From: Sneathiellaceae bacterium
GTDB lineage: Bacteria; Pseudomonadota; Alphaproteobacteria; Ferrovibrionales; Ferrovibrionaceae
Direction of reading: 5' to 3'
DNA: 64,000 nt
NCBI GenBank assembly: GCA_040216765.1
Contig: JAVJON010000066.1
Location: 20,661 to 84,660, forward strand
Under the pieces are notes generated by a model. The model made no database searches, was not told the origin of the DNA, and worked only from the letters and a program-made list of their open reading frames with translations. How positions within the stretch are numbered: position 1 is the first letter of the stretch; each line of letters starts with the position of its first letter. The position numbers and the translations under genes are program-made. This document shows, in pieces, positions 8,018 through 32,254 of this stretch.

Positions 8018-10063
8018 CTATCCTTCGACCTGCGAGAAATCCGCGACTGCATCAAGGGTTCCCCTGATGCGCCGCAACAGGCGCAACCGGTTCTCGCGCA
8101 GGGCCGCATCCTCCGCATTCACCGTGACCCGGTCGAAGAACGCATCGACCGGCTGGCGCAGGCCCGCCAGGATCGCACAGGCTGCCGCGAAATCCTCCGC
8201 CTCCAGGGCCCGCGAGGCGGTCCGGCCGGCCTCCGCCAGGGCCTCGCCAAGGGCTGCCTCCTCTGCCGCCGCGTAGCGGGCCGCATCCGGCGCCCCGTCG
8301 AAGCTGCGCCCGTCGCGCTTTTCCTCGATCGCGACGATGTTCGCGGCCCGCCGATAGGCGGCCAGCAGGTTGGCCCCGTCATCGCTCTGTAACAGATCGA
8401 CCAGCGCCTGCACACGCCTGGAGAGCAGCAGGAAGTCGTCCCGGCCCTCGCCGGCGGTGCCGTCCGCCGGCGCCATGGCGGCGGCGATCAGGTCGTGCCG
8501 CACGCCGTCGTCGCGCAGATGCACCACCAGGCGGTCGGCCATGTAGCCCAGCACCTCGTCCGCCGCCGGCCCCAGCAGCGGCCGCAGCGGCAGCCGCAGG
8601 CCGTTCTCCAGGACGATGCGGATGATCCCCAGCGCCGCGCGGCGCAGCGAGAAGGGATCGCGCGACCCGGTCGGCTTCTCGCCGATCCGGAAGAAGCAGG
8701 CCAGGGTGTCCAGCTTGTCCGCCAGGGCCGTCACGACCGCCACCGGGGCGGTCGGGCAGCCGTCGCTCGGCCCCTGCGGGGCGTAGTGCTGCGCCACCGC
8801 CTCCGCCACGGCCTCGTCCTCGCCGTCGTGCCGGGCATAGTAGCGGCCCATCACGCCCTGCAGCTCCGGGAACTCGCCGACCATCTCGCTGGTCAGGTCC
8901 GCCTTGGCCAGCAGGGCGGCCCGGTCGCAGGCGGCGGGGTCGGCGCCCGGCACCTGCGGCGCAAGCTGCGCGGCCAGGGCGCGCATGCGCGCCACCTTCT
9001 CGCCCAGGCTGCCCAGCTTCGCGTGATAGACGATGCCGTCCAGCGCCGGGACCCGGTCGGCCAGCCGGACTTTCCGGTCCTGGTCCCAGAAGAACCGGGC
9101 ATCCGACAGCCTCGCGCGCAGCACGCGCTCGTTGCCGGCGACGATCCGTGCCCCGCCATCCGTGGCCGCCATGTTGGAGACGATCACGAAGCGCGGCTGC
9201 AGCCGGCCCTGGCTGTCGTTCAGGGCGAAATACTTCTGGTGGCTGCGCATCGAGGTGACCAGCACCTCGCGCGGGATCTCCAGGAATGCCGGGTCGAAAC
9301 CGCCCAGCAGCACCACCGGCCATTCCACCAGGCCCGCGGTCTCCGCCAGCAGGCCGGGATCCTCGGCGACCGCCAGCCCCTCGGCCGCGGCGGCGGCCGC
9401 GGCGGCGGTCGCGATCGCAGCCCGCCGCTCCGCCGGGTCGAGCATCACATGGGCGGCACGCAGCTTCTCCCGGTAGTCGGCAAAGCCTTCGACGGCGAAG
9501 CTGTCGGCCGCCATGAAGCGGTGCCCGCGGGTCTCGGTGCCGCTGTGCAGATGTCCGAAGGCGAAGCGCACCGGGCGGCCGTCCAGCAGTGCCAGGATCG
9601 ACTGCAGCGGCCGGACCCAGCGCAGCTCGGTATCGCCCCAGCGCATGCTCTTCGGCCAGGGCAGCGCCGCCAGCGCATCGGGCAGCAGCTCGGCCAGGAT
9701 GTCGCGCACCGGGCGGCCGGGGATCTCCTGCACGGCGTAGAGGAAGACGCCTTTCGGGGTTTCGCGGCGCTCGCACTGGTCGATGCTGTCCAGGCCGGCG
9801 CTGCGCAGGAAACCGGCGATGGCCTTCTCCGGGGCATCGGCCCGCGGACCGCGCCGCTCCTCGCTGCGGCCCGCCTGCTCCAGCGGCAATCCGGTGACCT
9901 GCAGTGCCAGGCGCCGCGGCGTCACGAACCCGGCGATGCCGTCGAACGCCAGGCCCTGCGCCGCCAGGCGCTCGCGCACCAGGCGCTCCAGCGCGGCGGC
10001 GGCCTCGGCCTGCATGCGGGCCGGCATCTCCTCGGCCAGGGCTTCCAGCAACAGCTCCGCCAT
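8018..10063 (-). CDS. glyS: glycine--tRNA ligase beta subunit
   Basis: GlyS-like sequence from [18 protein letters not shown] onward. The ATG at 10063 lies 2 nt after the glyQ stop. The upstream part of the track ORF is discarded. Confidence 0.93.
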
Positions 10064-10065
10064 GG

Positions 10066-11001
10066 TCAGCCCGCCTGCCCGGCTGTTGGGCCGGCCGCGG
10101 CGGCCTCGGCCTGCGCCGGGGCATGGCCGCGGCTTTCCAGCCAGGCGGTGCAGCTGGCCCGTGCCAGGGTCCGCACCCGGCCGATATAGGCGGCACGCTC
10201 CGCCACGCCGATCACGCCCCGGGCATCCAGCAGGTTGAAGACATGGCTCGCCTTCATGCACTGGTCATAGGCCGGCAGCGGCAGCTTTGCCGCGGTCAGC
10301 GCCAGGCATTCCGCCTCGCACTCGGCGAAGCGGCGGACCAGCACCTCGGTATTGGCGTGCTCGAAGTTGAAGGCGGAGAATTCCCGCTCGGCCTGCAGGA
10401 AGACATCGCCATAGGTCGCGCCGGCGCCGTTCCAGTCCAGGTCGTAGACATTGTCGGCGCCCTGGACGTACATCGCCAGGCGCTCCAGGCCGTAGGTGAT
10501 CTCGCCCGCGACCGGGCGGCAGTCGAAGCCGCCGACCTGCTGGAAATAGGTGAACTGCGTCACCTCCATGCCGTCGCACCAGATCTCCCAGCCCAGCCCC
10601 CAGGCGCCCAGGGTCGGGCTTTCCCAGTCATCCTCCACGAGGCGCAGGTCGTGCTGCATCGGGTCGATGCCGATCGCCCGCAGCGAGTCGAAATACAGGT
10701 CCAGGATGTTGTCCGGGCTGGGCTTCAGCAGGACCTGGAACTGATAGTAGTGCTGCAGGCGGTTGGGGTTCTCGCCATAGCGGCCGTCCTTCGGCCGCCG
10801 CGACGGCTGCACATAGGCGGTGCGCCAGGGCTCGGGGCCAAGCGCGCGCAACGTCGTCGCCGGATGGAAGGTGCCGGCGCCGACTTCCATGTCGTAGGGT
10901 TGTAGTACGATGCAGCGGCGGGCCGCCCAGAACTGCTGAAGGGTCAGTATGAGGTCCTGGAATGACGGCGCCCCGGCTGCCGGGCGCTTAGCCATCGCCA
11001 T
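10066..11001 (-). CDS. glyQ: glycine--tRNA ligase alpha subunit
   Basis: 311 aa, highly conserved GlyQ sequence ([13 protein letters not shown]...[26 protein letters not shown]). Confidence 0.95.
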
Positions 11002-11207: not shown

Positions 11208-11259
11208 GCGAGCGGGACGGGCGTGCGGGGCGGGCGAGCGGGACGGGCGAGCGGGACGG
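11208..11259. repeat. 4 tandem copies of a 13-nt unit (GCGAGCGGGACGG; copy 2 degenerate)
   Basis: Read directly: units at 11208, 11221 (degenerate), 11234 and 11247. The array ends 9 nt before the kinase ATG. Confidence 0.6.
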
Positions 11260-11268
11260 GGGCGACAC

Positions 11269-12450
11269 ATGCAGCAACTTCTGGACGCCGCGTCCTACAT
11301 GGCGCACGGCTATTGCCTGTTGTGGCAGCCCTGGCTGATCGCCGTCCATGCCGGCGCCGATATCGCCACGGCCCTCGCCTATTTCGCCATTCCGGCCGCC
11401 ATCGTGATCTTCCTGCGGCGCCGCCGGGACCTGGCCTTTCCCAGCCTGGCCCTGCTGTTCGCCGCCTTCATCCTGCTCTGCGGCCTGACCCACGTGATGG
11501 GCGCGGTCACCCTCTGGCTGCCTGTCTACGAGCTGCAGGGCGCGGTGAAGCTGGCCACCGCCCTGGTGTCGATCGCCACCGCCATCGTGATCTTCCCGCT
11601 GATTCCCAAGGCGCTGGCGATCCCCAGCCCCGCTGCGCTGCAGCGCACGAACCGCCAGCTGGAAGAGGAAATCGCCGCGCATGAGCGGACCCTGCTGGAA
11701 CTGCGGGCAATGAAGGCCGAGCTGGAAGAGCAGGTACAGGACCGCACCGCGGACGTGGAGCAGGCGAACGGCCGGCTGCGCATCCTGGCGCGCGAGGTCG
11801 TCCACCGCTCCAAGAACCTGATGGCCGTGGTGCAGAGCCTGGCCTATCAGACCGCCCGCACCTGCCCCGACAAGGAGAGCTTCCTGGAGCGCCTGAACGG
11901 ACGCCTGAGCTCGCTGTCGGAGGCACTGGACGCGGTGGTCCGCAACGAATCGCGCGGCGCCTATCTGGAAGACCTGGTGCGTGGCCAGATGAGCTACTCG
12001 CTGGACACCTTTCCCGGCCGCATCGAGCTCGACGGGCCGTCGGTCATGGTGCGGCCGGAAGCGGCGCAGCAACTCGGCCTCGCGATCCACGAACTGGCCA
12101 CCAATGCGGTGAAGCATGGCGCCCTGGCCGGCGAGGACGGGACGGTTTCGGTTACCTGGCGACTGCGCCCCGGGGGCGCCGCCGGGGAGCCGCAGCGCTT
12201 CGCCCTGGACTGGCAGGAACGCTGGCCGGCGCGGCCGGACCCCGCGCAGGAGAGGCCTTCCGGCTTCGGCACCCTGCTGCTGGAACGCGCGGTGCCGGCC
12301 TCCCTGCGCGGCACCGCCAGCAGGCAGATCTCGCAGGACGGGTTTTCCTATTGCCTGGACGTCCCCACCGCCGACCTGCTGGCCTCGCCCGATGCCGACC
12401 TGGCGGAGGTGCTGGCAGACGGCCAGGACCGGGCCGCCAACCCCGGCTGA
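11269..12450 (+). CDS. HWE/HisKA_2-family sensor histidine kinase with an ethylene-binding-domain-like 3-TM N-terminus
   Basis: C-terminal half has the H-box HRSKNLMAVVQSL, an HATPase region and the W-x-E motif (LDWQERW) typical of HWE kinases. N-terminal 113 aa align with the ETR1 ethylene-binding domain (see findings). Start at the ATG at 11269. Confidence 0.85.
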   Translation: MQQLLDAASYMAHGYCLLWQPWLIAVHAGADIATALAYFAIPAAIVIFLRRRRDLAFPSLALLFAAFILLCGLTHVMGAVTLWLPVYELQGAVKLATALVSIATAIVIFPLIPKALAIPSPAALQRTNRQLEEEIAAHERTLLELRAMKAELEEQVQDRTADVEQANGRLRILAREVVHRSKNLMAVVQSLAYQTARTCPDKESFLERLNGRLSSLSEALDAVVRNESRGAYLEDLVRGQMSYSLDTFPGRIELDGPSVMVRPEAAQQLGLAIHELATNAVKHGALAGEDGTVSVTWRLRPGGAAGEPQRFALDWQERWPARPDPAQERPSGFGTLLLERAVPASLRGTASRQISQDGFSYCLDVPTADLLASPDADLAEVLADGQDRAANPG

Positions 12451-12496: not shown

Positions 12497-12526
12497 CAGT
12501 GGATCGGGGCGCAGTGGATCGGGGCG
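12497..12526. repeat. 2 tandem copies of a 15-nt unit (CAGTGGATCGGGGCG)
   Basis: Perfect tandem duplication read directly in the gap downstream of the kinase. Confidence 0.6.
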
Positions 12527-12540
12527 CAGGAAGGCCGGAA

Positions 12541-12765
12541 TCAGCCGAACGGGCAGTCGGCGCGGGCACAGGCAGCCTTCGTGCCGATCGGCACGAAGGC
12601 GCCGCAGGCCGTGCAGCGCAGGGTTTCGTCGGCCTGGGGCTCGGCCTTCCGGCGGGGCGGCGGTGGCGCACGACGCTCGACCGCCCCGTCCCGGCGGCCC
12701 CAGGCGCGGAAGACGAAGGCCACAGCAAAGATGGCCAGCAGCACGACGAGAATCTTCAGCAACAT
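12541..12765 (-). CDS. small membrane-anchored zinc-ribbon-like protein (PP0621-family-like)
   Basis: 74 aa: N-terminal TM helix, a basic/Pro linker, then CTACG...C..ADC, a four-Cys arrangement. The family assignment is from memory only. Confidence 0.5.
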   Translation of the reverse strand: MLLKILVVLLAIFAVAFVFRAWGRRDGAVERRAPPPPRRKAEPQADETLRCTACGAFVPIGTKAACARADCPFG

Positions 12766-17995: not shown

Positions 17996-18067
17996 CTTGG
18001 CCGGCGAAAGTCGAGGCAGCCGCCGGGGAGACCGCCGGGTCACCGAGTCGTGCATCCGGTGAAGGCC

Positions 18068-18256
18068 CTCGGCCGCCTCTGTCAGACGCCGGTCGTCGAG
18101 GATCCAGGTGATCTCGCGATCGACCTGCGGCGGCTGCGGTTCCTCGACGATGAGCGGCCCACACGGGCCGCGCCCAAGCTGCTCGAAACTGCGTTGATGC
18201 GGGTGGTACCAGGTTGCGGGGAACGAACGCCGCGTCGGCGTGACCGAACCGGACAT
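18068..18256 (-). pseudogene. truncated multicopper oxidase remnant (paralog of the 33520-34953 gene)
   Basis: MSGSVTPTRRSF (Tat signal) is joined in-frame to WYHPHQRSFEQLGRG..IVEEPQPPQVDREITWILDD.RLTEAAE. 44 of 48 residues are identical to the intact MCO. The codons between the signal and WYHPH are missing, as is everything after TEAAE. Confidence 0.7.
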
Positions 18257-18395
18257 GCGACAGTTTTTCGGAAAGCCGTGGTCCGCAGTCGCCCGGCGAT
18301 GCACTGGGCATGCCTCAAGGAGCAACCGCACAGGCTGTCGAAACCGACATTGGTTCGGCGCAGGCGGAACCCGACCATCCGGGCGGATAGTAGCG

Positions 18396-18739
18396 TCAGG
18401 TCAGAAAGGCAGGTCCCGGTTGATGAGGTTCGAGCGACGTCGGGGCTCCTGCGAGCCATTTGGATCGGGCAGTAGAATGCCGCATCGGTCCTTGGGCGAC
18501 GGCCTGAGCCGCGTCGGCGATCACGCCCTGAACCGGAACAGTACAGTCGATGGTGCAACTCGGCGTTTGGCTGTCATCGTCCGCGGTCAGGCAGGAAACG
18601 CAGCCGGGCTTCGACATGGCGTCGACCGTAACGAAGCTAGCCGCTCGATGGCCCCTGCCATGTTTGTGGCATAGGCAGAGGCGGTCACCGAGACAAGGGT
18701 GACAACGATGCCAGCAAGAATGCCTGTCCCGCGTTTCAT
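18396..18739 (-). pseudogene. frameshifted copy of the small Cys-motif leader protein (paralog of 35094-35432)
   Basis: MKRGTGILAGIVVTLVSVTASAYA... is in one frame and ...SCTIDCTVPVQGVIADAA...WLAGAPTSLEPHQPGPAFLT in another. Together they align colinearly with the 112-aa protein at 35094-35432. Confidence 0.55.
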
Positions 18740-18916
18740 CGTGATTGGAGCCCAGCCTTGCGCCGCGATTGCGTCGAATGCCATTCGGCCAAACTGCTCC
18801 CGATTGTGAAGAAGGCGATCCTCGACCGCAGCCGGACCGTTGGCTGTCTGCTGCAAGAGACAGCCACAACAGCGACGCCCGTGCATCGGAAAAAATGAGG
18901 GCGAAGCGGCATGCAG

Positions 18917-19540
18917 TCAGGGAAGAGAAGAATCGGAGTTAAGAAGCTTAACCCCCTTCTCTCTCAAGGTTCCGTCAGGAGCAATGTAGCGGTACAGCGT
19001 CACGGTCGATATTCCAAGTTGTCGGCAAAATTCTGCGATATTTGCGTCGCGATCTCGCATGACGGCTTGGGCAATAATGAGGTGGCCTTTTGTCAGGACT
19101 GGCTTTCGTCCCTTCGACCGAAAGGATTCGGCCGGTCCGTATCGCATTAACTTCCACTCGCGCAACCGGTAGCGCTCGAACTCCGCAAGGGCTGCAATGA
19201 AGTTGAAGAACTGCGGGCCGCTTCCGGCCTGTGAGGTGTCGATTGACCCGCAATTTGCTTTGAGGACTCTGAGGTCCACTTGTCTGTCCGCCAGGCACTG
19301 GACGGTCCTGACGAGATGCGCCAGATCGCGGCCAAGCCGATCGAGACGCCAGACCACCAGCGTATCCCCCGCTTCGAGGGCATTCATGCAAGCCTCGAGT
19401 TGTGGGCGCGGGTCGCGTCGTGTCGTCGTCTGCTCTTCGAACAGGCGACTACCTGGCACCCCCGCAGCGGTCAAAGCATAGCGTTGCAGGTCGAGCAGTT
19501 CGCTGTCGTCGGACTTGGCCGTCCTGATATAACCGGTCAA
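18917..19540 (-). CDS. serine recombinase (resolvase/invertase family), divergent and possibly inactive
   Basis: Resolvase core GDTLVVWRLDRLGRDLAHLV, IDTS..G..FF.FIAALAEFER, and a C-terminal HTH (IAEFCRQLGISTVTLYRYI). The N-terminal motif is GYIRTAKSDD instead of GYARVST.DQ. A TTG at 19540 gives the canonical N-terminus; the track ORF extends to 19732. Confidence 0.7.
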   Translation of the reverse strand: MTGYIRTAKSDDSELLDLQRYALTAAGVPGSRLFEEQTTTRRDPRPQLEACMNALEAGDTLVVWRLDRLGRDLAHLVRTVQCLADRQVDLRVLKANCGSIDTSQAGSGPQFFNFIAALAEFERYRLREWKLMRYGPAESFRSKGRKPVLTKGHLIIAQAVMRDRDANIAEFCRQLGISTVTLYRYIAPDGTLREKGVKLLNSDSSLP

Positions 19541-19665
19541 CAGGCCAGTCCCCGCTTCCCCCTCCCAGGCAGAACCGTCACGTTCCTGGTGTTCCGGAAG
19601 CGATGTCGTCGCTGTATGCAATCGTTCGCTGAATTGCAGTCCACTACCGGGGCGGGGCTCGATCG

Positions 19666-20142
19666 TCACGGCTTTCCACCCCCGTGACCCTTGGCATGCC
19701 CAAGGGATTGTCGACGGCTTTTCAGGAACCATCGTTCCGCTGTGAACACGGCCAGGATGCCAGGGGCCGACAATCCGACGGGCATGCCAAACAACCGCTG
19801 CGCATAGGTCCCGAAGCTGCGCGCGACCAGGCTTTCGTTGATTACCATCGAGAATGCCATCAGCAATGCTCCCGCGCCGGCCGTTGTGCTACGGCCATAT
19901 GCCTTCTGGAGATACATGCCGATGCCGCCCGTCGAAGGGTGGGCATAGGACAGCTTCGCGCAGGAACAGGCGCTGAAGCCGCTGATCGCGGCCGCAAGAA
20001 CGAAGGCCGCCGGGAACCAGAGCCCGGCATAATCTGCGACCTGGCCAGTCGGAGCAAAGATCCCTGCGCCGATCATCACACCGGTGCCCAGGCCGATTGC
20101 ACCCGGAAACGAAAAGCTGCCCTTCTTGTAGTTTTCGGTCAT
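19666..20142 (-). pseudogene. 5' fragment of an APC-family amino-acid permease
   Basis: MTENYKKGSFSFPGAIGLGTGVMIGAGIFAPTG... matches only the first ~130 aa (about 3-4 TM helices) of a ~450-aa permease. It then runs into unrelated sequence next to the recombinase. Confidence 0.65.
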
Positions 20143-20270
20143 TCCCCTGCCCACTCGATCTTTGAGAGTGCTGCGCACCCGCCGCTGGTCGGACACCGGA
20201 CACCAGACACCGAATGCCGGCGCCAAGGCACCGGCATTCGGTTTTCCAGTCGCTATGGGCGCAGACGGCC

Positions 20271-21005
20271 TTAGAACAGCAGCCTGGTGCCGATAACCAG
20301 GAACAACTCGTCCACATCTGCGCCATCGGCCCGCCGGAAACTGGCGGTATCGCCAAACGCCCTCTCGTAGTGCACCCCGACATAGGGGCTGACGGCGCGG
20401 TCGATCAGGTCGTAGCTAAGACGCAGGCCAAGTTCCGCCGTGCTGAGACCGGCACCGACCTCGGCCTCGGTATCCTCCGAGAAGGCAAAGTCGATCTCCG
20501 CGGCGGGGGTGAGAATGATGCGGTTGGTAATCAGGAGCTCGTACTCGGCATCCAGGCGGGCCGAAACGTCCCCCTTCTCGCTGAGGAACAGGTCGGCATC
20601 GATCTCGAACCATTGCGGAGCCAACCCCTGGACACCCAGCACCCCGTAGAGCCGGTCATAGCCGCGTGGCATGTCGTAGCGGACACCTGCCTTGGCATCG
20701 AAAAATGTGGAGATCGGCGTTTGCAGCAGCAGCTGGTTCTCCAGCGTCTCAAAGGCACTGCTGTCCTTCTCGTACTCGCCCTTGCTCTGCAACCGCAGTT
20801 TCAAGTCGTCGGTCCCGGCAAGAGCGTCCCCATCCCAGGCATAGACGTCGGAGTTCCGTCCGATCCGATACTCCAGCTGCTCCACCGTGACGCCGTAGTA
20901 AAACAGCGGTTCCTTCTCCTGTGCGATGGCAGAATGACTCGTAGCGACCAAGCCAGTGCTGCCGAGGAGTCCGGCCGCAAGTGCCCTTAAATAGCGATTT
21001 TCCAT
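20271..21005 (-). CDS. copB: copper resistance protein B (outer-membrane CopB/PcoB)
   Basis: 244 aa with signal peptide and CopB-family beta-barrel sequence ending ...LFLVIGTRLLF. Starts 3 nt after the copA stop. Confidence 0.9.
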   Translation of the reverse strand: MENRYLRALAAGLLGSTGLVATSHSAIAQEKEPLFYYGVTVEQLEYRIGRNSDVYAWDGDALAGTDDLKLRLQSKGEYEKDSSAFETLENQLLLQTPISTFFDAKAGVRYDMPRGYDRLYGVLGVQGLAPQWFEIDADLFLSEKGDVSARLDAEYELLITNRIILTPAAEIDFAFSEDTEAEVGAGLSTAELGLRLSYDLIDRAVSPYVGVHYERAFGDTASFRRADGADVDELFLVIGTRLLF

Positions 21006-21008
21006 GCG

Positions 21009-23027
21009 TCAGCCCTCCGACCGCTGCGGCCCGGCGATCTGCACCGCCTTCTTTGGACCACCCTCGACAATCACCTTCCGGAACATGCCGCTGGCAGCGT
21101 GGTAGGACAGATGGCAATGGAATGCCCATTGGCCTGGAGCATCGACTTCGGTCTCCATGTACAGGGTGGTCCCGGGAGCAACGCTGACGACGTGCTTGAC
21201 CGGGTTCCATTGCCCAGCGCCAACATCCAAGATCGACCACATGCCATGCAGGTGCATCGGATGTGTCATCATCGTTTCATTGACGAACTTGAACCGGACG
21301 CGCTCGCCGTATTTCAGGCGGATCGGTTCTGCATCCTCATACTTGATGCCGTTGATGGACCAGGAATACCGCTCCATATTGCCAGTCAGACGCAGTTCGA
21401 TCTCTCGCGTCGGCGCGCGCTCCGGATAGAGCGGCCGGGCGGCACGCAGATCCGCATAGGATAGTACTTTCCCGCCATTTGCCGCTGATGGCAGCAATCC
21501 GCTGCCCTTGGCGTAGAATGGATCCTGGCCGGCACGTTCTGTCGTTCCAGCAGCGCCCTGCCTCATGGCGGCGGCATCCATTTTCGAATGGTCCATGCCC
21601 GCCGCCGGAGCGGCTTCCGCCTGGCTCATGCCACCCGTGCCGTGACCCATGGCGGCGTGGTCCATGCCCTGGGCGGGTGTGGAGTCCGCCTGGCTCATGC
21701 CACCCGTGCCGTGCCCCATGGCGGCATGGTCCATGCCCTGGGCTGGTGGAGAGTCCGCCCGGCTCATGCCACCCGTGCCATGCCCCATGGCGGCGTGGTC
21801 CATGCCCTGGGCGGGTGCGGGGTCCGCCTGGCTCGTGCCACCCGTGCCGTGACCCATGGCAGCGTGGTCCATGCCCGCCGCCGGAGCGGCTTCCGCCTGG
21901 CTCATGCCACCCGTGCCGTGACCCATGGCGGCGTGGTCCATCCCAGCCATACTGCCGTGATCCATGCCCATATCCGACATAGTCAGGAGCGAGGCAGGCC
22001 GCAGCTCCGGGACGTCTGCCACCATGCCTGGACGGGGAGCCAGGGTGCCGCGAGCAAAGCCCGATCGACCCATGGACTCCGCGAATATTGTGTAGGCTCG
22101 ATCCTCTTTCGGCTGAACGATCACGTCATAGGTTTCAGCGACCGCAATGCGCAACTCGTCAACCGTTACGGGTTTCACATCATTGCCGTCAGCTTGCACC
22201 ACCGTCATCTGCAACCCGGGGATTCGCAGATCGTAATAGGTCATCGCCGAGGAGTTGATGAAGCGCAGCCGGACTTTCTCACCAGGCTTGAAGATCCCGG
22301 TCCAGTTCTGTTCCGGCCCCTTGCCATTGATCAGGCCGGTGAAGCCCTGCAGGTCCTCGATATCGGTGGGCATCATGCGCATCTCGCCCCAGGCGGCGCG
22401 GTCCGCGAGTGTCGCGTCGAAGCCCTTCGACGCGACGTCGTCGAAGAAATCTCCCAGAGTGCGCTGCTTGCGATTGTAGTAGTCCGGCATCAGCTTCAAG
22501 TTCCGCATGATCCGGTCACCGGAGTGCGGGTGCTTGTCGGTCAGCTGGACGACATAGTCGCGATCGCTGGCAATCGCCTCACCGCTCTTCGGCGTGATGA
22601 CTATTGCTCCGAAGGCGCCATCGGGCTCCTGAAAGCCGGTATGGCTGTGGAACCAATAGGTTCCTGTCTGCCGGATCGGGAAGCGGTAGGTGAAGGTCTG
22701 TCCCGGCGCGATCCCGTCGAAGCTGATCTTCGGCACGCCATCCATCTGGAACGGCAGGATCAAGCCGTGCCAGTGGATCGAGGTGGATTCGTCGAGATTG
22801 TTGGTGACGTTGATAACCACATCTTCGCCCTCGGCAAAGCGAAGGACCGGGCCAGGCGAGGCCCCGTTATAGCCAATCCCAGTCTTGGTGAAATCGCCGG
22901 TGTCGATGGTGACACGGTCGACGCTGAGGTCGTAGGTGCCCGCCTGCAAGGTTGCGCTCTGCGCAAGGCCGAAACCAAGCGCCATGACGGTCAACGCGAG
23001 GCTGCTGCGTCCTGGTATCCAGTTCAT
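21009..23027 (-). CDS. copA: copper resistance multicopper oxidase CopA/PcoA with Met/His-rich repeat insert
   Basis: MCO copper ligand motifs (HWHG, WFHSH, HPMHLHG, HCHLSYHAASGM) plus an internal MDHAAMGHGTGGMSQ repeat array. Confidence 0.92.
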   Translation of the reverse strand: MNWIPGRSSLALTVMALGFGLAQSATLQAGTYDLSVDRVTIDTGDFTKTGIGYNGASPGPVLRFAEGEDVVINVTNNLDESTSIHWHGLILPFQMDGVPKISFDGIAPGQTFTYRFPIRQTGTYWFHSHTGFQEPDGAFGAIVITPKSGEAIASDRDYVVQLTDKHPHSGDRIMRNLKLMPDYYNRKQRTLGDFFDDVASKGFDATLADRAAWGEMRMMPTDIEDLQGFTGLINGKGPEQNWTGIFKPGEKVRLRFINSSAMTYYDLRIPGLQMTVVQADGNDVKPVTVDELRIAVAETYDVIVQPKEDRAYTIFAESMGRSGFARGTLAPRPGMVADVPELRPASLLTMSDMGMDHGSMAGMDHAAMGHGTGGMSQAEAAPAAGMDHAAMGHGTGGTSQADPAPAQGMDHAAMGHGTGGMSRADSPPAQGMDHAAMGHGTGGMSQADSTPAQGMDHAAMGHGTGGMSQAEAAPAAGMDHSKMDAAAMRQGAAGTTERAGQDPFYAKGSGLLPSAANGGKVLSYADLRAARPLYPERAPTREIELRLTGNMERYSWSINGIKYEDAEPIRLKYGERVRFKFVNETMMTHPMHLHGMWSILDVGAGQWNPVKHVVSVAPGTTLYMETEVDAPGQWAFHCHLSYHAASGMFRKVIVEGGPKKAVQIAGPQRSEG
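21591..21941. repeat. 5 tandem 69-bp (23-codon) coding repeats inside copA
   Basis: The anchor string GTCCATG recurs at 21591, 21660, 21729, 21798, 21867 and 21936 (period 69). Copies 1 and 5 are identical over all 69 nt. Confidence 0.9.
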
Positions 23028-23154
23028 ATCCTGCTCCTGTCACGCCCCAAACTCCGGGCAAGCCGGAGGTGGGCGCCGATCGATGCACTGCCGGAGGGCA
23101 GGTTCCCGGTGTCGCAGCTGAACGCCACGACACCGGGACCTGCGATGCCCTGTG

Positions 23155-23733
23155 CTATCGGATGTCGATGACGCCCTTCATTCCTGCCTCGTAGTGGCCG
23201 GGGACGTTGCAGGCGATTTCCACGGTGCCGGCGCTCGGAAAGGTCCAAACGACCTCGCCGCTCTGGCCCGGCTCCAACAGAACGCTGTTCGGATCCGAGT
23301 GACTCATCCCGTGGCCGCCCTTCATCTTGTCATGATTGATACGGTCGGCTTCGAGAACGCCATCGTTCACCATCGCCATCATCTCCTTCTGATGGGCGGC
23401 ATGCATTGCGGGGGTGCCGATATTGAACTCGTGCACCAATGTACCCTTGTTGGTGACAACGAAACGCACGGTCTCGCCGGCTTTCACATCCACCGCCGCA
23501 GGATCGTAGGAATTGTCGACGAGCACGATATCGACAGTCCTGTCCGCCTTGCTTGCCGCGGCAGCCTGCCCCATCAGACCGGTCGAGCCGGCTTGATGGG
23601 CATCACCATCATGGGAACCCGCGGCTTGCACTGGCGATCCGAAGGCAACGCCAAGTGTCAGGAGCGCCGCTGCCGCAGCGCCCCAGACCTGCTTGGTAAT
23701 AGAACTACGAACTCGATTGATCTTGGATTCCAT
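23155..23733 (-). CDS. periplasmic cupredoxin-fold copper-binding protein (plastocyanin/azurin-like)
   Basis: Signal peptide, His/Met-rich linker and a type-1 Cu C-terminal ligand pattern (...VEIACNVPGHYEAGMKGVI). Confidence 0.8.
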   Translation of the reverse strand: MESKINRVRSSITKQVWGAAAAALLTLGVAFGSPVQAAGSHDGDAHQAGSTGLMGQAAAASKADRTVDIVLVDNSYDPAAVDVKAGETVRFVVTNKGTLVHEFNIGTPAMHAAHQKEMMAMVNDGVLEADRINHDKMKGGHGMSHSDPNSVLLEPGQSGEVVWTFPSAGTVEIACNVPGHYEAGMKGVIDIR

Positions 23734-23983
23734 TTAATTCGTCCATCTCTCTCGCATAGCACCCTTCATGGGAAGTCGCCGGCAAGTGAGATTGCCGAGA
23801 CATCCGAATGTGTGGGGACCTGCTTTGAAGCCGTGACTTCGTCACATGACGGACCTACCGCAAGCGATCAGGCTCGCATGATGCGGTAGTCAAGTCATGG
23901 AGAAGTCGGGATTTGTTGCGCCCGTAAGAGCAACAATGGGACCGGTCCTCGTCGGCGTTTCGCGGACTCAGACTTGTGCAGGT

Positions 23984-24388
23984 TCAGGCGCTGACTCGAG
24001 GAGGGCGAAAGAGGCCATCGGAACCGCTCGGCGGCGGAGCGTCGCCTGGCCACCACGACCAATCGCGAAATGCAGTCCGGTGCTCACCAATCAAAGCACC
24101 AGGCAAAAGACCCGACAGGCAGCCAATGGCGCAGCACGACGCCGCATCATGGTCAACTTCGTGGTCATGCTGGCCGGAGTCATGATCGCCCATGGACTGA
24201 TCGTGCAGGTGGTACCCACCAGCAGCCGAAAATGGCACCAGATCGCACACTGCAGCTTGTGTCGGCACGTCCGGTCCAAATACGACCGGACCGGCAGCCT
24301 CGGCGGACGTCGACCAATACCCGATCAACAGCGCGAAAGCCGCGACAGCGAGGAAGAACTTCAACAAATGTGCAGGTACCGTCGCCAC
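23984..24388 (-). CDS. small exported His/Asp-rich CC-x3-C protein with Pro-rich tail (DUF2946-like, tentative), first gene of the cupredoxin-copAB operon
   Basis: A GTG at 24388 gives VATVPAHLLKFFLAVAAFALLIGYWSTSAEA (signal/anchor). Then HLHDQSMGDHDSGQHDHEVDHD, SCCAIGCLSGLLP and the tail ...GLFRPPRVSA. Paralog of 41376-42068. The start is uncertain because there is no in-frame ATG. Confidence 0.5.
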   Translation of the reverse strand: MATVPAHLLKFFLAVAAFALLIGYWSTSAEAAGPVVFGPDVPTQAAVCDLVPFSAAGGYHLHDQSMGDHDSGQHDHEVDHDAASCCAIGCLSGLLPGALIGEHRTAFRDWSWWPGDAPPPSGSDGLFRPPRVSA

Positions 24389-24665
24389 GACCAGTTCAGC
24401 TTTGTAGGTGACGAAGGCGTCCAATCTATCGGGCCGAGCAAGCCGAAGCAAGGCGTCGATAAGGGGGTTCACGCGGCTTTGAAGGGTTGTCGCCGAAGGC
24501 AGATCCAATCTACATCTCGACGGCAGCCTCTTCCGAACTCTTGCAACGTCGCTACCAAGTGGGCGCGGTTCAGGGTGGGCACTGCAGCCCGATCGAATGG
24601 ATACAGCCGATCTTGCCGATCCTTCGACATGGTGATAATGTATATAATACACAGATTCATCTTTA

Positions 24666-25046
24666 GTGAATATCGTGCGCTATCAAATCTACATTTTGAT
24701 TTGTATTGGTATCCTGGTCATCTTGGCACGGAGTGTCCCGGGCGTTTCCGTGGTCACTGCTACGGTTCTGCACAAGCGCCCCTTTGCTACTTCCGTAGAG
24801 ACGTCGACCTTCGCGTTTGTGCATTGTCGAAACGACGAATCCCCTCGACACGGGCATGAGCAGCCCTCCGACAATGGGGAAGGGCTGGCATTCTCCTGTG
24901 CTACGCCGCCATCTGTCGGGCTAACTACCGACCACCTGCAGGCATTCGTCATAGCCAGATCCGAGCGGCTGCGCCCTGACGTTACCAGAGATCCTGCCGG
25001 ACCGGACTTTGCTCCCCCGCGACGTCCTCCACGCACCTTCTGCTGA
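24666..25046 (+). CDS. small membrane-anchored Cys-motif/Pro-tail protein (same loose family), divergent from 23984-24388
   Basis: GTG start, then a TM helix (IYILICIGILVILA). LAFSCATPPSVGL resembles LACDFSCTVPAQGV of the 35094-35432 protein. The tail GPDFAPPRRPP resembles EPHPPRPS. Confidence 0.35.
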   Translation: MNIVRYQIYILICIGILVILARSVPGVSVVTATVLHKRPFATSVETSTFAFVHCRNDESPRHGHEQPSDNGEGLAFSCATPPSVGLTTDHLQAFVIARSERLRPDVTRDPAGPDFAPPRRPPRTFC

Positions 25047-25378
25047 AAGTTTCACGTCGGCGCCGTACGCAGCGCCGACGCCGGATACAGCAGGGTCGAG
25101 ATCTGCGCCCACATTGCTGCATCCGATTCCCGTCTGTAGGCCGCGCTGTCTGCCCCGGAATTCACCTGGGTGCCGGCGCTGCAACATCGGACGATGCCAT
25201 TCAGTGCCGCCAAAGCAAGGCCCGTCCCACGTGGGTAGCAAGCTCCGCTGAACATTCTACCGGTCGGAGCTTTCCTATGCCGCTTCGGATGCGGTCCTGC
25301 CGCCCTGTCGGCCGATCGACCAATACATGGTTTGGGATCGTTCGGAGGTGGCGCCACATCGAACAGGAATCCACGAAA

Positions 25379-25720
25379 ATGAAGATGCCGTTCTACGCCC
25401 ACGCGACGATGCGAAGCGCTCGTCTGTCAGGATTGGGATTGGCTGCTGGACTTGTCTTTCTTCTGGCTGTTCCCGCCGCCGGATTGGCACAGTCGAGGGA
25501 CCCGCACTGTTTCACCCAGATGCGGAACAGAATGCCCGTCGGACTGTTGCGACAGCAGCTGGATCAACAGGGCTGGCAAGTCCAGTCGATACGGCTCAAA
25601 TATGGCTGCTACGTTGTCCAGGCTCTGGATGCCAACGGTGAACAGGTCAGGGCCTATTTCGAGCCCCGCTTCCTGTGGCGCCGCGAAGTCGATGATGAGA
25701 AACAGACAGACAACGATTGA
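25379..25720 (+). CDS. small secreted PepSY-domain-like protein
   Basis: Signal peptide (MRSARLSGLGLAAGLVFLLAVPAAGLA), then LRQQLDQQGWQVQSIRLKYGCYVVQALDANGEQVRAYFEP, a PepSY-like pattern. The start among the nearby ATGs is uncertain. Confidence 0.5.
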   Translation: MKMPFYAHATMRSARLSGLGLAAGLVFLLAVPAAGLAQSRDPHCFTQMRNRMPVGLLRQQLDQQGWQVQSIRLKYGCYVVQALDANGEQVRAYFEPRFLWRREVDDEKQTDND

Positions 25721-25756
25721 GAGTTATAGAGTGCGTACCTAGGTAATGCAGTCGGG

Positions 25757-25784
25757 GCGGTTTCGCATTTTTTTTCGAAACCGC
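25757..25784 (+). terminator. 9-bp-stem hairpin with T-rich loop downstream of the PepSY gene
   Basis: GCGGTTTCG-CATTTTTTTT-CGAAACCGC read directly. The T run sits in the loop rather than after the stem, so it is not a textbook terminator. Confidence 0.3.
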
Positions 25785-25879
25785 TCCGACGAATACCGCA
25801 TTTCAGTCGATCCGGATCACTTTGATTGGGGTGCCGGGTCGTTCGGACAGAGTTCGACATCGGATATTTGGACCGCCTG

Positions 25880-26749
25880 CAGGTTCCGAGGCGCGATCAT
25901 CGCTTTTGCGCCTGTCATGCCGACCTCGCCAAGCGCGCCTGGCAAAAGATCGTTCTCCATCGTCAGCTGTCCGACCTTGGCGCCTTCGGCGGCTTTGTTC
26001 CGCTATTCCCATGACCGCAAGGGCAAGCATCCCCGCGCACATCTGGCCGGCTATGCTGGGATCCAGCAGGCAGATGCCTATGCCGGCTTCAACGAGCCCT
26101 CCAAACCGGAGCGGGCGCCGGGGCCGGTCCGGGAAGCCTGCTGCTGGGCGCATGCGCGGCAAAAATTCTTCAAACTGGCCGATATCAACCGCAAGGCAAA
26201 GGGTGGCAGGCCCGCTTCACCGCTGGCACTGGAGACAGTGCAGCGGTTCAATACCCTGTTCGACATCGAACGTGCCATCAACGGCCAAACGGCCGGGGAA
26301 CGGCCCAAGCCGCGCCAGGAGCAAGCGGCACCTCTGGTTGCCGAACTGCAGGCCTGGACGGGGGCCATCGCGGCCGGATGTCCCGTCACAGCAAGGCCGC
26401 AATGGCGATGGACTACATGCTGACCCGCTGGGCGGGGCTCAGCCGGATTCTCGAACACGGCCGGATCTGCCTGACCAACAATGTCGCCGAACGCGCATTG
26501 CGCGGCATCGCACCGGGTCGGAAGGCCCGGCTGTTCGCCGGCTCCGATCGCGGTGGCAAACGGGCCGCCTCCATGCACATCCTGATCGGCACAGCCAAGC
26601 TCAATGGTGTTGATCCACAAACCCGCCCACGCCGTGGCCGCCTGATCACCTACAGGACGGCGGTACTCACCGGAGGGTTCCGACTAAGCCAGGTGCACCA
26701 TCGCAACCTGGCAAAAGCGCTCGAAGAGCGTTGGCCCAGCCCCGACTGA
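25880..26749 (+). mobile_element. IS66-family transposase remnant (N-terminally truncated, at least one frameshift)
   Basis: FRYSHDRKGKHPRAHLAGYAGIQQADAYAGF...CWAHARQKFF in one frame. MSRHSKAAMAMDYMLTRWAGLSRILEHGRICLTNNVAERALRGIAPGRKARLFAGSDRGG...AKLNGVDPQ in another. No intact tnpA/tnpB and no clear IRs seen. Confidence 0.75.
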
Positions 26750-26791
26750 CCGGGCACAGAACGCCCCTCGCTTTCCCTGTCCGATTCCCAA

Positions 26792-27667
26792 TTATCCACG
26801 GCAACCATAGAAACCGCGATAGCCGACTCGAAGACCGGCGTCCAGTTCCAGCAGCAGATCGACTTCCTGCCGACCCGCCATCGGGTCCAACGCCGCTTCA
26901 CCCAAAGGCGGAGAAATACGCATTGCGATACCAATCGCCGCCAGTGTCAGTCCGTTCGCCGATCCAGCGGCATTGCCTGCATCGACTCGAACCAGGTCAC
27001 CGCTGAGCTTGACCAGTCCCGCTCCGTTTTCGCCGACGGCAAGAACCGGGGGGCTGTCCTCCGTATAGGTGAAGAAGCAGGCGGCGCCGTCGGGGAAGAG
27101 CCTGGCGACTTCGTCCGGCGTCATGAATTCCGGATCGAGAACTGCGACCTCGGCACTCGACAGCGCATCGGCCAGGGTTCCGACCTCTTTGGGCTCGCTT
27201 GCCCCGGATTCCGCGCCGTCGCCCGAGTCATCGATGCTGTCGATCAGATACCGCATCTCGGCGATTTCCTTGTCCTGCGCGAAGATGATTTCGTCAGCCA
27301 GCTTGCGCACCCGGGGGTCGGAAATATTCGCTCGGCTAGACGTCATGATGGCAATCGAATGATGCGGGATCATTGCACGCATGAAACTCGTGTCACCAAC
27401 GGTGACCTGGCTGCGGACCAGCCACAAGGATACACCGAAAGCCAGAAGGGCACCGGCAAAGATGGCGGCATTGAGCGTCTTGTTCGAATACATTGAGAGC
27501 ATGAACCCGAGCATGATCACCGCCATCGTCGCGCCCATGACCAAAGCCATGTAAAGACGGGTTTCCGAGAAAAAAACATGGGTCCACAAATATGTATTGA
27601 GGTACATCAATCCGAACATGACCACAGTGGACGTGAATATCATCGCGGCAAACCGGCCGTAAGCCAT
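26792..27667 (-). CDS. membrane DUF305-domain protein fused to an uncharacterised C-terminal domain
   Basis: 3-4 TM helices, then a DUF305-like half-domain (MIPHHSIAIMTS...DPRVRKLADEIIFAQDKEIAEM), then ~140 aa of unrecognised sequence. Start at the ATG at 27667. Confidence 0.7.
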   Translation of the reverse strand: MAYGRFAAMIFTSTVVMFGLMYLNTYLWTHVFFSETRLYMALVMGATMAVIMLGFMLSMYSNKTLNAAIFAGALLAFGVSLWLVRSQVTVGDTSFMRAMIPHHSIAIMTSSRANISDPRVRKLADEIIFAQDKEIAEMRYLIDSIDDSGDGAESGASEPKEVGTLADALSSAEVAVLDPEFMTPDEVARLFPDGAACFFTYTEDSPPVLAVGENGAGLVKLSGDLVRVDAGNAAGSANGLTLAAIGIAMRISPPLGEAALDPMAGRQEVDLLLELDAGLRVGYRGFYGCRG

Positions 27668-28166
27668 TCTGCCGCTCCCGTTTTTTGGTTCTTCGCTGTG
27701 GTTTGTCACGCCGTACCGACCTTTCACTTGACGCATTCGTATTACGTCATCAGATAACGCGCGTGCGCGACTTCCGGTTCCATAGCAGCGTTCAGCGGTC
27801 CTGGGGCCCCCACGATCCATCGACCGTCGAGTTTTTTGCCACGGGCCGTCGCGCATTCTCCCCCATACATGCATGTCCACAAAGACAGTGGGCTACGCGA
27901 CGACAGAAGACGTCGGAGGACCTCCACCGCACAGGGGCGTCACCACCCATTACACAGAAAACCTGCAACTCAAAAATAATATTGTTTAACCATATTGTTA
28001 TTAAACTGGCGCGATCGCATCATTCTTGCCCTATTTACTGCAGACATTTATTTGCGTATTATGGTTGCATCGACTGGCATCTGACCGGTGCATTGTTTCC
28101 GTCTCTCTCGCTATTCCCCCCTTCTGTGTAGTGGGACGGTTTCAGTAAGACGACGGGCCTCACCTC

Positions 28167-28808
28167 ATGAAAATATCCGACAGTTTCTCTGGTGCCGCTC
28201 TGTCTTTGGTGCAACGCAGGCGCAAAGTGGCGCTTCTTTTCATTGTCTTCGGAACCGTGTCTTGGGCTTTTCTTAACGATCACCATTTTCCAGGACGCAC
28301 TTATGAGCAAATCACCGGGACTGTTGGCATAGTTTTAATTGGAGTATGTGTTCTGGGTCGCGTCTGGTGCTCCTGGTTCATATCCGGAAGAAAGAAAAAG
28401 GAACTGGTTCAAGAAGGACCTTTTTCTATGTCAAGAAATCCATTGTATATGTTCTCTATCATCGGCGCATCCGGAGCGGGATTAACAGCCGGAAGTATTG
28501 TTCTGACTATATTAATCTTTTCAAGCGTTCTATTTGTATTCAACTCAGTTGTGACTCATGAAGAGAATTTTCTTTTAAATCAATTTGGCGATAAATATAT
28601 TTTATACTGCGCCACCGTCCCGAGATGGGGTATTCGTATGTCCAGTTTTTCTTTCTATGTAGAATATTTCACCAACAAACCAAATGGTAAATTGTTTTTG
28701 ATCTCGATCAGAGATTCATCTCTATTTCTCCTTTGTATTCCCCTATTCCGGGCCATCGATGAAGTCACGCACACCGGATTTTTTCGCCCTGTTTTCGCCC
28801 TGTATTAG
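28167..28808 (+). CDS. ICMT/PEMT-family membrane methyltransferase (CzcN/NccN-like)
   Basis: Multi-TM protein with the family motif ...LVQEGPFSMSRNPLYMF... Strikingly AT-rich codon usage compared with every neighbour. Confidence 0.7.
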   Translation: MKISDSFSGAALSLVQRRRKVALLFIVFGTVSWAFLNDHHFPGRTYEQITGTVGIVLIGVCVLGRVWCSWFISGRKKKELVQEGPFSMSRNPLYMFSIIGASGAGLTAGSIVLTILIFSSVLFVFNSVVTHEENFLLNQFGDKYILYCATVPRWGIRMSSFSFYVEYFTNKPNGKLFLISIRDSSLFLLCIPLFRAIDEVTHTGFFRPVFALY

Positions 28809-29036
28809 ACCCTGTGCCTAGAGCATGATCACCTGGGCCGGCAACATACCGTGAGTTACAGCATAACGTGAGTTGATGAGGTAGTTGTTGGTGGGAGTTG
28901 ATCCGGCAGCGTTCCGATGCACCATCAGAGTGCCTCGCGGTCGCGTTCCTGGACAGTCTCAGCAGATATCTGAGCTTGGCGAACAGCTGTTCGAATGGGT
29001 GTTCAGCCCCGGCATGTGGTAGATCCGAACTCCCGA

Positions 29037-29777: not shown

Positions 29778-29798
29778 GCAGGAGCCCGGCCACCGGCG

Positions 29799-30599: not shown

Positions 30600-30671
30600 T
30601 TCCCTGCTCCGAATGGTTGATCGAATAACATGCAGCTACCGGCCGGCTTTCCAGATAACCCAGGTACATTT

Positions 30672-31466: not shown

Positions 31467-31713
31467 CGTCCGGCGTCGATCTCGATCCGTGCAGGCCCTT
31501 GCACATGCACAGCCCGGCTCCGCACATTGCCAGGCAGGGCAGAACGCTGAGCAGGATCGGTGCGACCCCGATTGCGGACAGCCAGCCCCAGTTCAGCGCC
31601 ACCCCAACGCCGGCGGCGGCGAAACCGGACAGAAGCCATACCCGTCTGTCCCGCAGCCACAACCATCGAATCCGCCCGTAGGTCAAGTCGCTTGAAAGCA
31701 TAGGGTTGGTCAT
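31447..31713 (-). CDS. small 2-TM Cys-rich inner-membrane protein
   Basis: 88 aa with two hydrophobic helices and the cluster LPCLAMCGAGLCMCKG. Sits tightly between tlpA-like and SCO genes. No family recognised. Confidence 0.5.
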   Translation of the reverse strand: MTNPMLSSDLTYGRIRWLWLRDRRVWLLSGFAAAGVGVALNWGWLSAIGVAPILLSVLPCLAMCGAGLCMCKGLHGSRSTPDDEKPEA

Positions 31714-31716
31714 CCT

Positions 31717-32250: not shown

Positions 32251-32254
32251 GGGT

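Follow-up and report, generated by a model that had tools for sequence, protein, structure and literature searches.

A Sneathiellaceae histidine kinase that joins an ETR1-type ethylene-binding domain to an HWE kinase core

Introduction

To our knowledge, ethylene perception outside plants has been shown for few receptors; the bacterial ones are SynEtr1 and, as of 2025, AzoEtr1, both of which are HisKA histidine kinases with linked response regulators. Here, we analyze a gene from a Sneathiellaceae bacterium (GenBank assembly GCA_040216765.1) that encodes a 393-amino acid histidine kinase in which a sensor of the same type is joined to a kinase core of the HWE family. The gene lies within a 64,000-nucleotide stretch of contig JAVJON010000066.1 (positions 20,661 to 84,660 of the forward strand), which we call the window; coordinates are those of the window unless a comparison locus is named. 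By analogy with the studied receptors, the encoded protein is quite probably a minimal bacterial Cu(I)-dependent receptor for ethylene (or small alkenes) that functions as a membrane-bound, probably dimeric sensor histidine kinase.

In Arabidopsis ETR1, the ethylene-binding domain (EBD) comprises three transmembrane (TM) helices. Roles have been assigned to Asp25, Cys65, and His69 and to a bridge between Asp25 and Lys91 (PMC10266040), as well as to the other binding residues (Asp25, Tyr32, Ile35, Pro36, and Ile62) and to the signaling residue Lys91 (PMC10266040, PMC11819568). The window protein resembles ETR1 in its three TM helices, in the spacing between the Asp and the His, in the seven binding residues together with the equivalent of Lys91, and in a cysteine near the extracytoplasmic N-terminus. 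The two proteins diverge beyond the sensor: ETR1 continues into GAF, HisKA, HATPase_c, and receiver domains, whereas the window protein contains only ETR1_N, HWE_HK, and HATPase_c_2. ETR1 signals mainly through CTR1, in preference to phosphorelay.

SynEtr1 (slr1212) of Synechocystis PCC 6803, which we liken to the window protein by description and not by sequence, is also a bacterial EBD histidine kinase that transfers phosphate to a response regulator. Ethylene acts on this aquatic organism at very low concentrations (PMC11819568, PMC6682694). By its description, SynEtr1 differs in having a phytochrome-like photosensory domain, a HisKA kinase, and a linked regulator and small RNA.

The closest described system is AzoEtr1 of Azospirillum brasilense Sp7 (OH82_RS30505; PLoS Genet 2025, PMC11819568), which binds ethylene and whose D35A and C75A mutants fail to complement. 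Its gene, which we extracted from the plasmid sequence of A. brasilense Sp7, encodes a protein whose length and whose numbering of D35, C75, and K98 match the publication. Like the window protein, AzoEtr1 is a membrane-bound histidine kinase of an alphaproteobacterium and carries a three-helix EBD at its N-terminus; the two proteins share an N-terminal HGxC motif, the D/Y/I/P/I/C/H/K set of key residues, the length of the loop between TMs 2 and 3, and a juxtamembrane PKALAxPS motif. AzoEtr1 differs in its size (525 amino acids), in its PAS domain, and in its classical HisKA H-box (AHEMSQPL) and HATPase_c domain, whereas the window protein has an HWE core; BLASTP finds no similarity between the kinase region of AzoEtr1 and the window protein past residue 154. 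A 135-amino acid single-domain response regulator lies directly downstream of AzoEtr1 on a plasmid of a root-associated bacterium, whereas the window gene, which comes from a metagenome-assembled genome (MAG), is chromosomal and an orphan. We therefore rejected AzoEtr1 as an example of the same architecture. Its EBD-PAS-HisKA layout supports the assignment of the sensor and not that of the output.

Results

Sensor domain

A first-pass annotation of the gene, made by a model from the DNA letters alone, described the sensor as an EBD look-alike. The resemblance is real and goes further than that word implies. The Pfam model ETR1_N (PF25487, ‘Ethylene receptor 1-like, N-terminal domain’) recovers residues 23–118 across its whole length (profile positions 2–97 of 97) at 114.6 bits and an E-value of 2.6e-33; the cut-off of the model is 27 bits. 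Judged by sequence, the sensor is a genuine member of the ETR1-type EBD family. The domain call is correct and already made by current Pfam, and the protein is not an anomaly.

Codon by codon, Asp25, Tyr32, Ile35, Pro36, Ile62, Cys65, His69, and Lys91 of ETR1 correspond to Asp31, Tyr38, Ile41, Pro42, Ile68, Cys71, His75, and Lys94 of the window protein. The six of these that the first-pass annotation had named (all except Ile68 and Lys94) indeed stand at the ETR1 spacing, with a gapless distance of 44 residues from the Asp to the His in both proteins. The loop between TMs 2 and 3 is three residues shorter than that of ETR1 and equal in length to that of AzoEtr1, whose D35, C75, and K98 align with Asp31, Cys71, and Lys94. 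BLASTP comparison of the window protein with AzoEtr1 gives 40% identity over 154 amino acids without gaps (E = 2e-38); comparison with the N-terminus of ETR1 gives 32% identity over 97 amino acids (E = 1e-13). The numbering of the ETR1 sequence used in this search and in the alignment agrees with that of the published residues.

Conservation of these positions extends well beyond the closest relatives. Each of the eight columns has at most one exception in 119 homologues. Both Cys71 and His75 are retained by every one of these, the short forms (58/58) as well as the long forms (61/61) distinguished below. Neither failure of the profile search to recover the EBD family nor loss of Cys71 and His75 from orthologues, two outcomes that would have counted against the first-pass annotation, was observed. 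The eight positions are among the 55 invariant columns of alignment A1, which comprises 27 orthologues from several orders, and Cys71 and His75 are invariant in alignment A2 as well. We also drew on a scan of GTDB with the degenerate pattern HELATNAxK, which matched HWE kinases generally and for which 80 loci were listed; the window’s own genome is not among them, and the scan is an incomplete taxonomic census. The key residues are also kept in the canonical EBDs of these loci, among the matches listed.

An AlphaFold2 (AF2) model was built on the orthologue alignment as a monomer (mean pLDDT 85, pTM 0.52). Its helices 21–51, 58–80, and 88–116 coincide with three peaks of hydropathy, which predicts a sensor of three TM helices. 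The RRRRD loop that follows TM1 (residues 50–54) is predicted to be cytoplasmic; under the positive-inside rule, its position after TM1 places the N-terminus outside the cell. No solved EBD structure was found by sequence (phmmer against the Protein Data Bank (PDB)) or by fold (Foldseek).

The segment that precedes TM1 lies outside the Pfam model and carries the motif H13-G-Y-C16-L-L-W-x-P-W (residues 13–22; 11305–11334). His13 and Cys16 are invariant in A1, in A2, and in all canonical bacterial EBDs regardless of output class (for GTDB, among the matches listed). Cys16 is absent from two EBDs that also lack Cys71, those of loci L044 and L065, to which we return below. The N-terminus of ETR1 has two cysteines (Cys4 and Cys6), whereas bacterial EBDs have the H-G-x-C motif. 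Cys16 falls near Cys4 and Cys6 in a MAFFT alignment whose register is uncertain in this region. It is possible that Cys16 is the counterpart of the Cys4/Cys6 dimer disulfide of ETR1 or, alternatively, that the motif is a site of Cu(I) entry or loading.

Signaling helix and kinase core

Beyond the EBD, the AF2 model contains one continuous helix (residues 121–198) that runs into the first helix of the DHp domain and contains His179. A short break at the conserved PKALAIPSP motif precedes this helix. Pro113, Pro119, and Pro121 of the motif are conserved in the alignment of 27 orthologues, as are Leu131, Glu134, His138, and Thr141. Residues 123–190 give weak matches to coiled-coil families, and the juxtamembrane consensus is common to EBD proteins of different output types. 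Neither the Pfam scan of the protein nor the AF2 model revealed a PAS or GAF domain between sensor and kinase. As modeled, the layout is that of a minimal receptor in which a sensor, one signaling helix, and a kinase follow one another directly.

The output had been called an HWE kinase, and this assignment stands. Pfam HWE_HK (PF07536) matches residues 176–257 (profile positions 1–82 of 83) at 73 bits (cut-off 22.8 bits); the HisKA_2 model scores 15.5 bits, under its own cut-off. In the AF2 model, a second DHp helix (residues 202–225) is followed by an alpha/beta ATP-binding domain. The N-box reads H274-E-L-A-T-N279-A-V-K-H-G, the HWE signature W315-Q-E317 follows, and G332-F-G334 lies beyond it. 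His179 in VVHRSKN, His274 in IHELATNAVKHG, the WxE motif, and GFG are all invariant in A1 and align with their counterparts in Brucella LOV-HK. The motifs that we take to define the HWE family are the H-R-x-K-N H-box, the N-box His, W-x-E, and G-F-G.

The only solved relatives found by sequence are entries 5EPV and 6PH4 of the Brucella LOV-HK kinase domain (phmmer against the PDB, E = 2e-28). Foldseek likewise placed 6PH4 and 5EPV first (E = 7e-17 to 4e-16; target TM-score 0.72–0.78), followed by Erythrobacter EL346 (4R39). In NCBIfam, the model for the PhyK kinase matched weakly (E = 4e-5). From its intact motifs, the output is an HWE-family kinase that is predicted to autophosphorylate.

The kinase core belongs to the same family as that of the HWE/HisKA_2 kinases of the general stress response, such as Brucella LOV-HK, Erythrobacter EL346 and EL368, Caulobacter LovK and PhyK, and Sphingomonas Pak. 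Those kinases are often orphans, as is the window gene, and members of the group signal to single-domain regulators and to PhyR. They differ in their sensors, which are LOV, PAS, or other mostly soluble domains, whereas the window protein has a putative Cu-dependent transmembrane EBD joined directly to the DHp domain.

Distribution of the EBD-HWE architecture

An exhaustive phmmer search with residues 1–125 against 1.84 billion cluster representatives returned 8,289 matches at E ≤ 1e-3, 5,857 at E ≤ 1e-10, and 338 at E ≤ 1e-30. Among the 87 full-length representatives with the most similar EBDs, all of which carry ETR1_N, 43 have HisKA, 29 HWE_HK, 14 HisKA_2, 17 a receiver, 9 GGDEF, and 4 EAL; SpoIIE also occurs as an output in this set. 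The best 120 whole-protein matches are nearly all of two forms, a short one with ETR1_N and HWE_HK (about 390 amino acids) and a long one with a PAS domain between the two (about 500 amino acids). These counts, together with the names of the hosts given below, do not bear out two statements of the first-pass annotation, namely that an EBD-HWE architecture would be an unusual variant and that bacterial homologs are known mainly from cyanobacteria and a few plant-associated proteobacteria.

The long forms, exemplified by the Aquisalinus flavus protein (P0103), have the same EBD and HWE core and keep all binding residues. They show 55–63% identity to the window protein in the best BLASTP segment, which covers 41–45% of the query, and their bit scores are as high as those of the short forms. 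They differ in having one PAS domain between the coiled coil and the DHp domain and, in Aquisalinus, in being operonic with a 119-amino acid regulator.

Orthologues are carried by Marinibaculum, Afifella, Cereibacter, Leisingera, Roseobacter, Aurantimonas, and sphingomonads. Marine or aquatic genus names are frequent among the hosts (Marinibaculum, Afifella, Leisingera, Roseobacter, Aurantimonas marina, and Aquisalinus). The host of the window gene is a Sneathiellaceae MAG and therefore not an obvious plant associate; its habitat is probably marine.

The identity between EBDs is the same within output classes as between them (0.51–0.57), and the HWE forms cluster only partly in a neighbor-joining tree. 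On these grounds, we rejected a single fusion event as the origin of the EBD-HWE architecture; the sensor has therefore been shuffled repeatedly among outputs. A side observation concerns Marinibaculum pumilum, the closest cultured relative. Contig 27 of this species (L018, 5962–8421) encodes a second canonical EBD protein with a HisKA-HATPase_c-receiver-Hpt layout, which adjoins an OmpR-type regulator, so that a single genome holds two EBD receptors that differ in output.

The window protein is thus an uncharacterized member of a known, very large set of bacterial EBD sensors. The class with HWE output is common in databases and among alphaproteobacterial genomes and is experimentally untouched; we know of no member that has been characterized. 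A literature search that did not extend to the architecture figures of Lacey & Binder 2016, Wang et al. 2006, and Carlew et al. 2019 found no paper on an HWE output for an ethylene receptor, and none on ethylene receptors in Roseobacter or marine Alphaproteobacteria.

The breadth of the family also invites a different reading of the sensor. The EBD could be a Cu(I)-binding domain that responds to something other than ethylene, such as the copper status of the membrane or periplasm, redox, propene, isoprene, CO, acetylene, or isonitriles. On this reading, the name ‘ethylene receptor’ would reflect a plant-centered view of an older, more general metal-gas sensor module. The great abundance of the domain (8,289 representative clusters), its attachment to HisKA, HWE, GGDEF, EAL, and SpoIIE outputs, and the occurrence of hosts without obvious plant contact are in keeping with such a role. 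The periplasm-facing, invariant His13 and Cys16, which are absent from the Cys71-less variants, would fit the handling of a metal, and within 30 kb of the gene are found both a copper-resistance island and the gene for a Cu+ P-type ATPase. We nevertheless regard this reading as unlikely. All seven residues identified as ethylene-binding by alanine scanning are invariant, well beyond the Cu ligands, and the three EBDs that have been tested, those of ETR1, SynEtr1, and AzoEtr1, bind ethylene at very low concentrations (PMC11819568, PMC10266040, PMC6682694). Ethylene or a close analogue is favored because of this strict conservation and because the three homologous EBDs bind it. The copper island, for its part, appears to be an accidental neighbor: it is inserted DNA of lower GC content that carries a resolvase gene and a fragment of IS66, and it is absent from the syntenic M. 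pumilum locus.

Orphan status and candidate partners

The first-pass annotation noted that no response regulator is adjacent to the kinase gene, which holds for the whole window. An iterated receiver profile run over all open reading frames (ORFs) of at least 70 amino acids found no receiver domain in the 64 kb, whereas it found 61 in 87 comparison loci. No match to CheY or to the AzoEtr1-linked regulator (AzoRR) was found in the window by tblastn, and Pfam scans of most predicted window genes showed no receiver or Hpt domain. The adjacent-regulator layout of AzoEtr1 and SynEtr1 is absent here; the neighbors are glyQ and glyS on one side and an S49 peptidase gene on the other. Orthologues in M. 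pumilum, Afifella, Cereibacter, Leisingera, Roseobacter, and MAGs are likewise orphans amid unrelated housekeeping genes, and most GTDB loci with a canonical EBD-HWE gene also have no linked regulator, among the matches listed.

Wherever a regulator is linked to an EBD-HWE homologue, it is a single-domain response regulator. In Aquisalinus flavus (L095, 6001–7859), a canonical EBD-PAS-HWE kinase is followed by a 119-amino acid single-domain regulator whose start abuts the stop of the kinase and whose motif IPLLIVSGY resembles FATGUY. A single-domain regulator lies downstream of the kinase in Microvirga, and two are linked to it on a Blastomonas plasmid. The Aquisalinus pair is the best available lead to the type of partner used by EBD-HWE kinases.

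Two soil MAGs depart from this pattern. In L044 (5917–7350) and L065 (5938–7377), ETR1_N-PAS-HWE kinases adjoin phyR (L044, 3362–4168) and a FATGUY-like single-domain regulator. In the EBDs of these kinases, Cys71 is replaced by Ala or Val, Tyr38 by Leu, and Cys16 is absent. Judged by these substitutions, they probably form a degenerate branch that binds neither Cu nor ethylene. The loci are cases in which the EBD fold was recruited into a stress-response setting, and they are not evidence that ethylene reaches that pathway. We therefore rejected adjacency to phyR as a link between the canonical class and the general stress response: it occurs, among the matches listed, only in L044 and L065.

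These loci do bear on a further possibility, namely that the window protein is an input kinase of the general stress response whose three-helix domain serves mainly as a membrane anchor or envelope-stress sensor, ethylene binding being vestigial. HWE/HisKA_2 kinases are the usual inputs to PhyR, two MAGs place an ETR1_N-PAS-HWE kinase beside phyR and a FATGUY-like regulator, and the weak PhyK match points the same way. However, the phyR-linked kinases are those that have lost Cys71, Tyr38, and Cys16, whereas no binding residue has been lost from the window protein or its orthologues, and this strict conservation argues for a functional ligand site. In addition, no phyR, nepR, or ecfG was found in the window or in nine orthologous loci, and no linkage of canonical EBD-HWE genes to phyR was seen there. 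We consider such a role improbable.

Gene, locus, and neighboring genes

The coordinates of the gene, its domains, and the adjoining features are collected in Table 1. The ORF is intact from the ATG to the TGA, as verified in the ORF list and by a codon check. A longer form that begins with a GTG at 11143 was rejected, as homologues of 370–410 amino acids and an identical 393-amino acid NCBI protein open at the same Met. The latter is named ‘HWE histidine kinase domain-containing protein [Sneathiellaceae bacterium]’ and occurs in several independent MAG assemblies. The closest named relative is the M. pumilum orthologue, which is 73% identical and lies in conserved synteny: the order there is pyruvate phosphate dikinase, glyS, glyQ, the kinase gene on the opposite strand, a small ORF, S49 peptidase, methyltransferase, DUF2007, and polyprenyl synthase. 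The kinase gene is monocistronic and stands in a housekeeping context.

Table 1 Features of the kinase gene and its surroundings in the window.
Feature	Position	Strand	Basis
Complete gene, EBD / coiled-coil / HWE histidine kinase, 393 amino acids	11269..12450	+	ORF, Pfam, exact-sequence look-ups, M. pumilum synteny
N-terminal extracytoplasmic segment, residues 1–22, outside the Pfam model	11269..11334	+	Conservation in A1, A2, and GTDB EBDs
EBD, residues 23–118, three predicted TM helices with D31, Y38, I41, P42 (TM1), I68, C71, H75 (TM2), and K94 (TM3)	11335..11622	+	Pfam ETR1_N, residue conservation, AF2, hydropathy
Predicted juxtamembrane signaling helix / coiled-coil linker, residues 121–175	11629..11793	+	AF2, weak coiled-coil matches, invariant columns
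HWE_HK DHp domain, residues 176–257, with phospho-acceptor His179 in E-V-V-H-R-S-K-N (codon 11803–11805)	11794..12039	+	Pfam, 5EPV alignment, codon check
Catalytic ATP-binding domain, about residues 261–366	12049..12366	+	HATPase_c_2 (27.7 bits), PDB phmmer, Foldseek, invariant columns
glyQ, divergent from the kinase gene	10066..11001	-	ORFs, Pfam of neighbors
glyS, beyond glyQ, then pyruvate phosphate dikinase	8018–10261		ORFs, Pfam
13-nt tandem repeat GCGAGCGGGACGG, 4.1 copies	11208..11260	.	Tandem Repeats Finder

The GCGAGCGGGACGG repeat ends 8 nt before the start of the kinase gene, within the 267-bp divergent intergenic region shared with glyQ, and is not present in the orthologous upstream region of M. 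pumilum. No sigma-70-like promoter was detected upstream by a scan for the sigma-70 consensus only, in a genome of about 70% GC. The repeat and the lack of a recognizable sigma-70 promoter, together with the lack of a partner gene in 64 kb, might suggest an orphan gene that is in decay or already without function, left over from domain shuffling and playing no part in signaling today. Against this stand the intact ORF with all catalytic motifs, the identical sequence in several independent assemblies, the 73%-identical orthologue in conserved synteny, and the 55 columns that are invariant over 27 orthologues from several orders. Orphan status, moreover, is normal for HWE kinases, and the promoter scan covered the sigma-70 consensus alone, in a genome of 70% GC. 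We give the idea of a relic very little credence.

Several other features of the window were noted. A 15-nt repeat (2.2 copies) occupies 12497–12529 in the intergenic region 3' of the kinase gene. Next to it, a 74-amino acid ORF on the reverse strand (12541–12765) has a hydrophobic helix toward its N-terminus, is rich in Cys at its C-terminus (CTACGAF...CARADC), and shows no Pfam match; it is conserved at the same place in M. pumilum (81 amino acids) and is called as a gene in MAG assemblies. Farther away, within 52301–55317 on the reverse strand, the gene for a 651-amino acid protein with a C-terminal adenylate/guanylate cyclase domain adjoins a universal-stress-protein gene; it is a further orphan signaling gene of the window.

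A segment of lower GC content (0.56–0.66 versus about 0.70) spans approximately 18000–35800, and also 37507–40554, and interrupts the order of genes seen in M. pumilum. It encodes a resolvase, CopB, the multicopper oxidase CopA, a cupredoxin, an IS66 fragment, DUF305, ScsB/ScsC-like proteins, SCO1/SenC, two redoxins, and a second multicopper oxidase, and looks like a mobile copper-resistance island. The island lies 6 kb from the kinase gene, and a Cu+ P1B-type ATPase with an HMA domain is encoded just beyond it. A functional link between the kinase and these copper genes was rejected for the reasons given above, the orthologous M. pumilum locus being syntenic and devoid of them; their nearness to the gene of a sensor that is presumed to depend on Cu(I) is probably a coincidence.

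Discussion

If the window protein is a receptor of the kind we propose, each protomer would hold one Cu(I) on Cys71 and His75 of TM2, assisted by Asp31 of TM1, and ethylene would bind to the Cu(I), as modeled on ETR1, SynEtr1, and AzoEtr1. By the same analogy, a change at Asp31 would be relayed over a polar bridge to Lys94 in TM3 and then through the juxtamembrane coiled coil to alter the autophosphorylation of His179. Plants, Synechocystis, and Azospirillum that lack the receptor behave as if treated with ethylene (PMC10266040, PMC11819568). Because this is so in all three studied systems, the most likely sign of the response is that ethylene would lower kinase output. The phosphoryl group may then pass to an unlinked single-domain response regulator, as suggested by the neighbors of homologues and by the habits of HWE kinases. 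Such output may also feed the PhyR-NepR-sigmaEcfG general stress response, as is the case for many alphaproteobacterial HWE/HisKA_2 kinases; these kinases coordinate that response in Alphaproteobacteria (PMC5964349, PMC12148442).

A plant is not required as the source of the ligand. Ethylene is formed photochemically in water at levels to which cyanobacteria respond (PMC6682694). Given that the gene comes from a Sneathiellaceae MAG, ethylene formed photochemically from dissolved organic matter, or released by algae and microbes, would be more plausible than ethylene from a plant host.

Several points weigh against this proposal. The identity of the ligand, the dependence on Cu, and the sign of the response are all extrapolated to EBD-HWE proteins by analogy. 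The cognate response regulator was not found in the window, to which the search was confined. The suggested connection of canonical EBD-HWE kinases to general stress signaling is drawn from the habit of the kinase family, because the kinases adjacent to phyR in L044 and L065 have lost Cys71, Tyr38, and Cys16. Finally, the AF2 model is that of a monomer (pTM 0.52), so that dimerization and the continuity of the signaling helix are predictions; some HWE/HisKA_2 kinases are reported not to be dimers (PMC12148442).

EBD-HWE proteins constitute a large, easily recognized, and unstudied class in which a conserved Cu/ethylene site appears to be wired by a single helix to an HWE kinase. The HWE family governs stress and lifestyle decisions in Alphaproteobacteria, and many carriers of EBD-HWE proteins appear to be marine or aquatic. 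We offer, as a speculation that may well prove wrong, the broader idea that, by way of orphan EBD-HWE kinases, ethylene or some other gas that binds Cu(I) feeds into the single-domain-regulator/PhyR network for stress and lifestyle in free-living marine and aquatic Alphaproteobacteria, with the H-G-x-C motif as a Cu(I)-loading or dimer-locking element. If this were true, bacteria without a plant host would use photochemical or algal ethylene as a cue. If the class binds ethylene, the 393-amino acid protein, which has neither a PAS nor a GAF domain, would be the smallest ethylene receptor that nature offers to structural biologists and biochemists, and binding by the class would suggest that ethylene serves as an environmental cue in the ocean.

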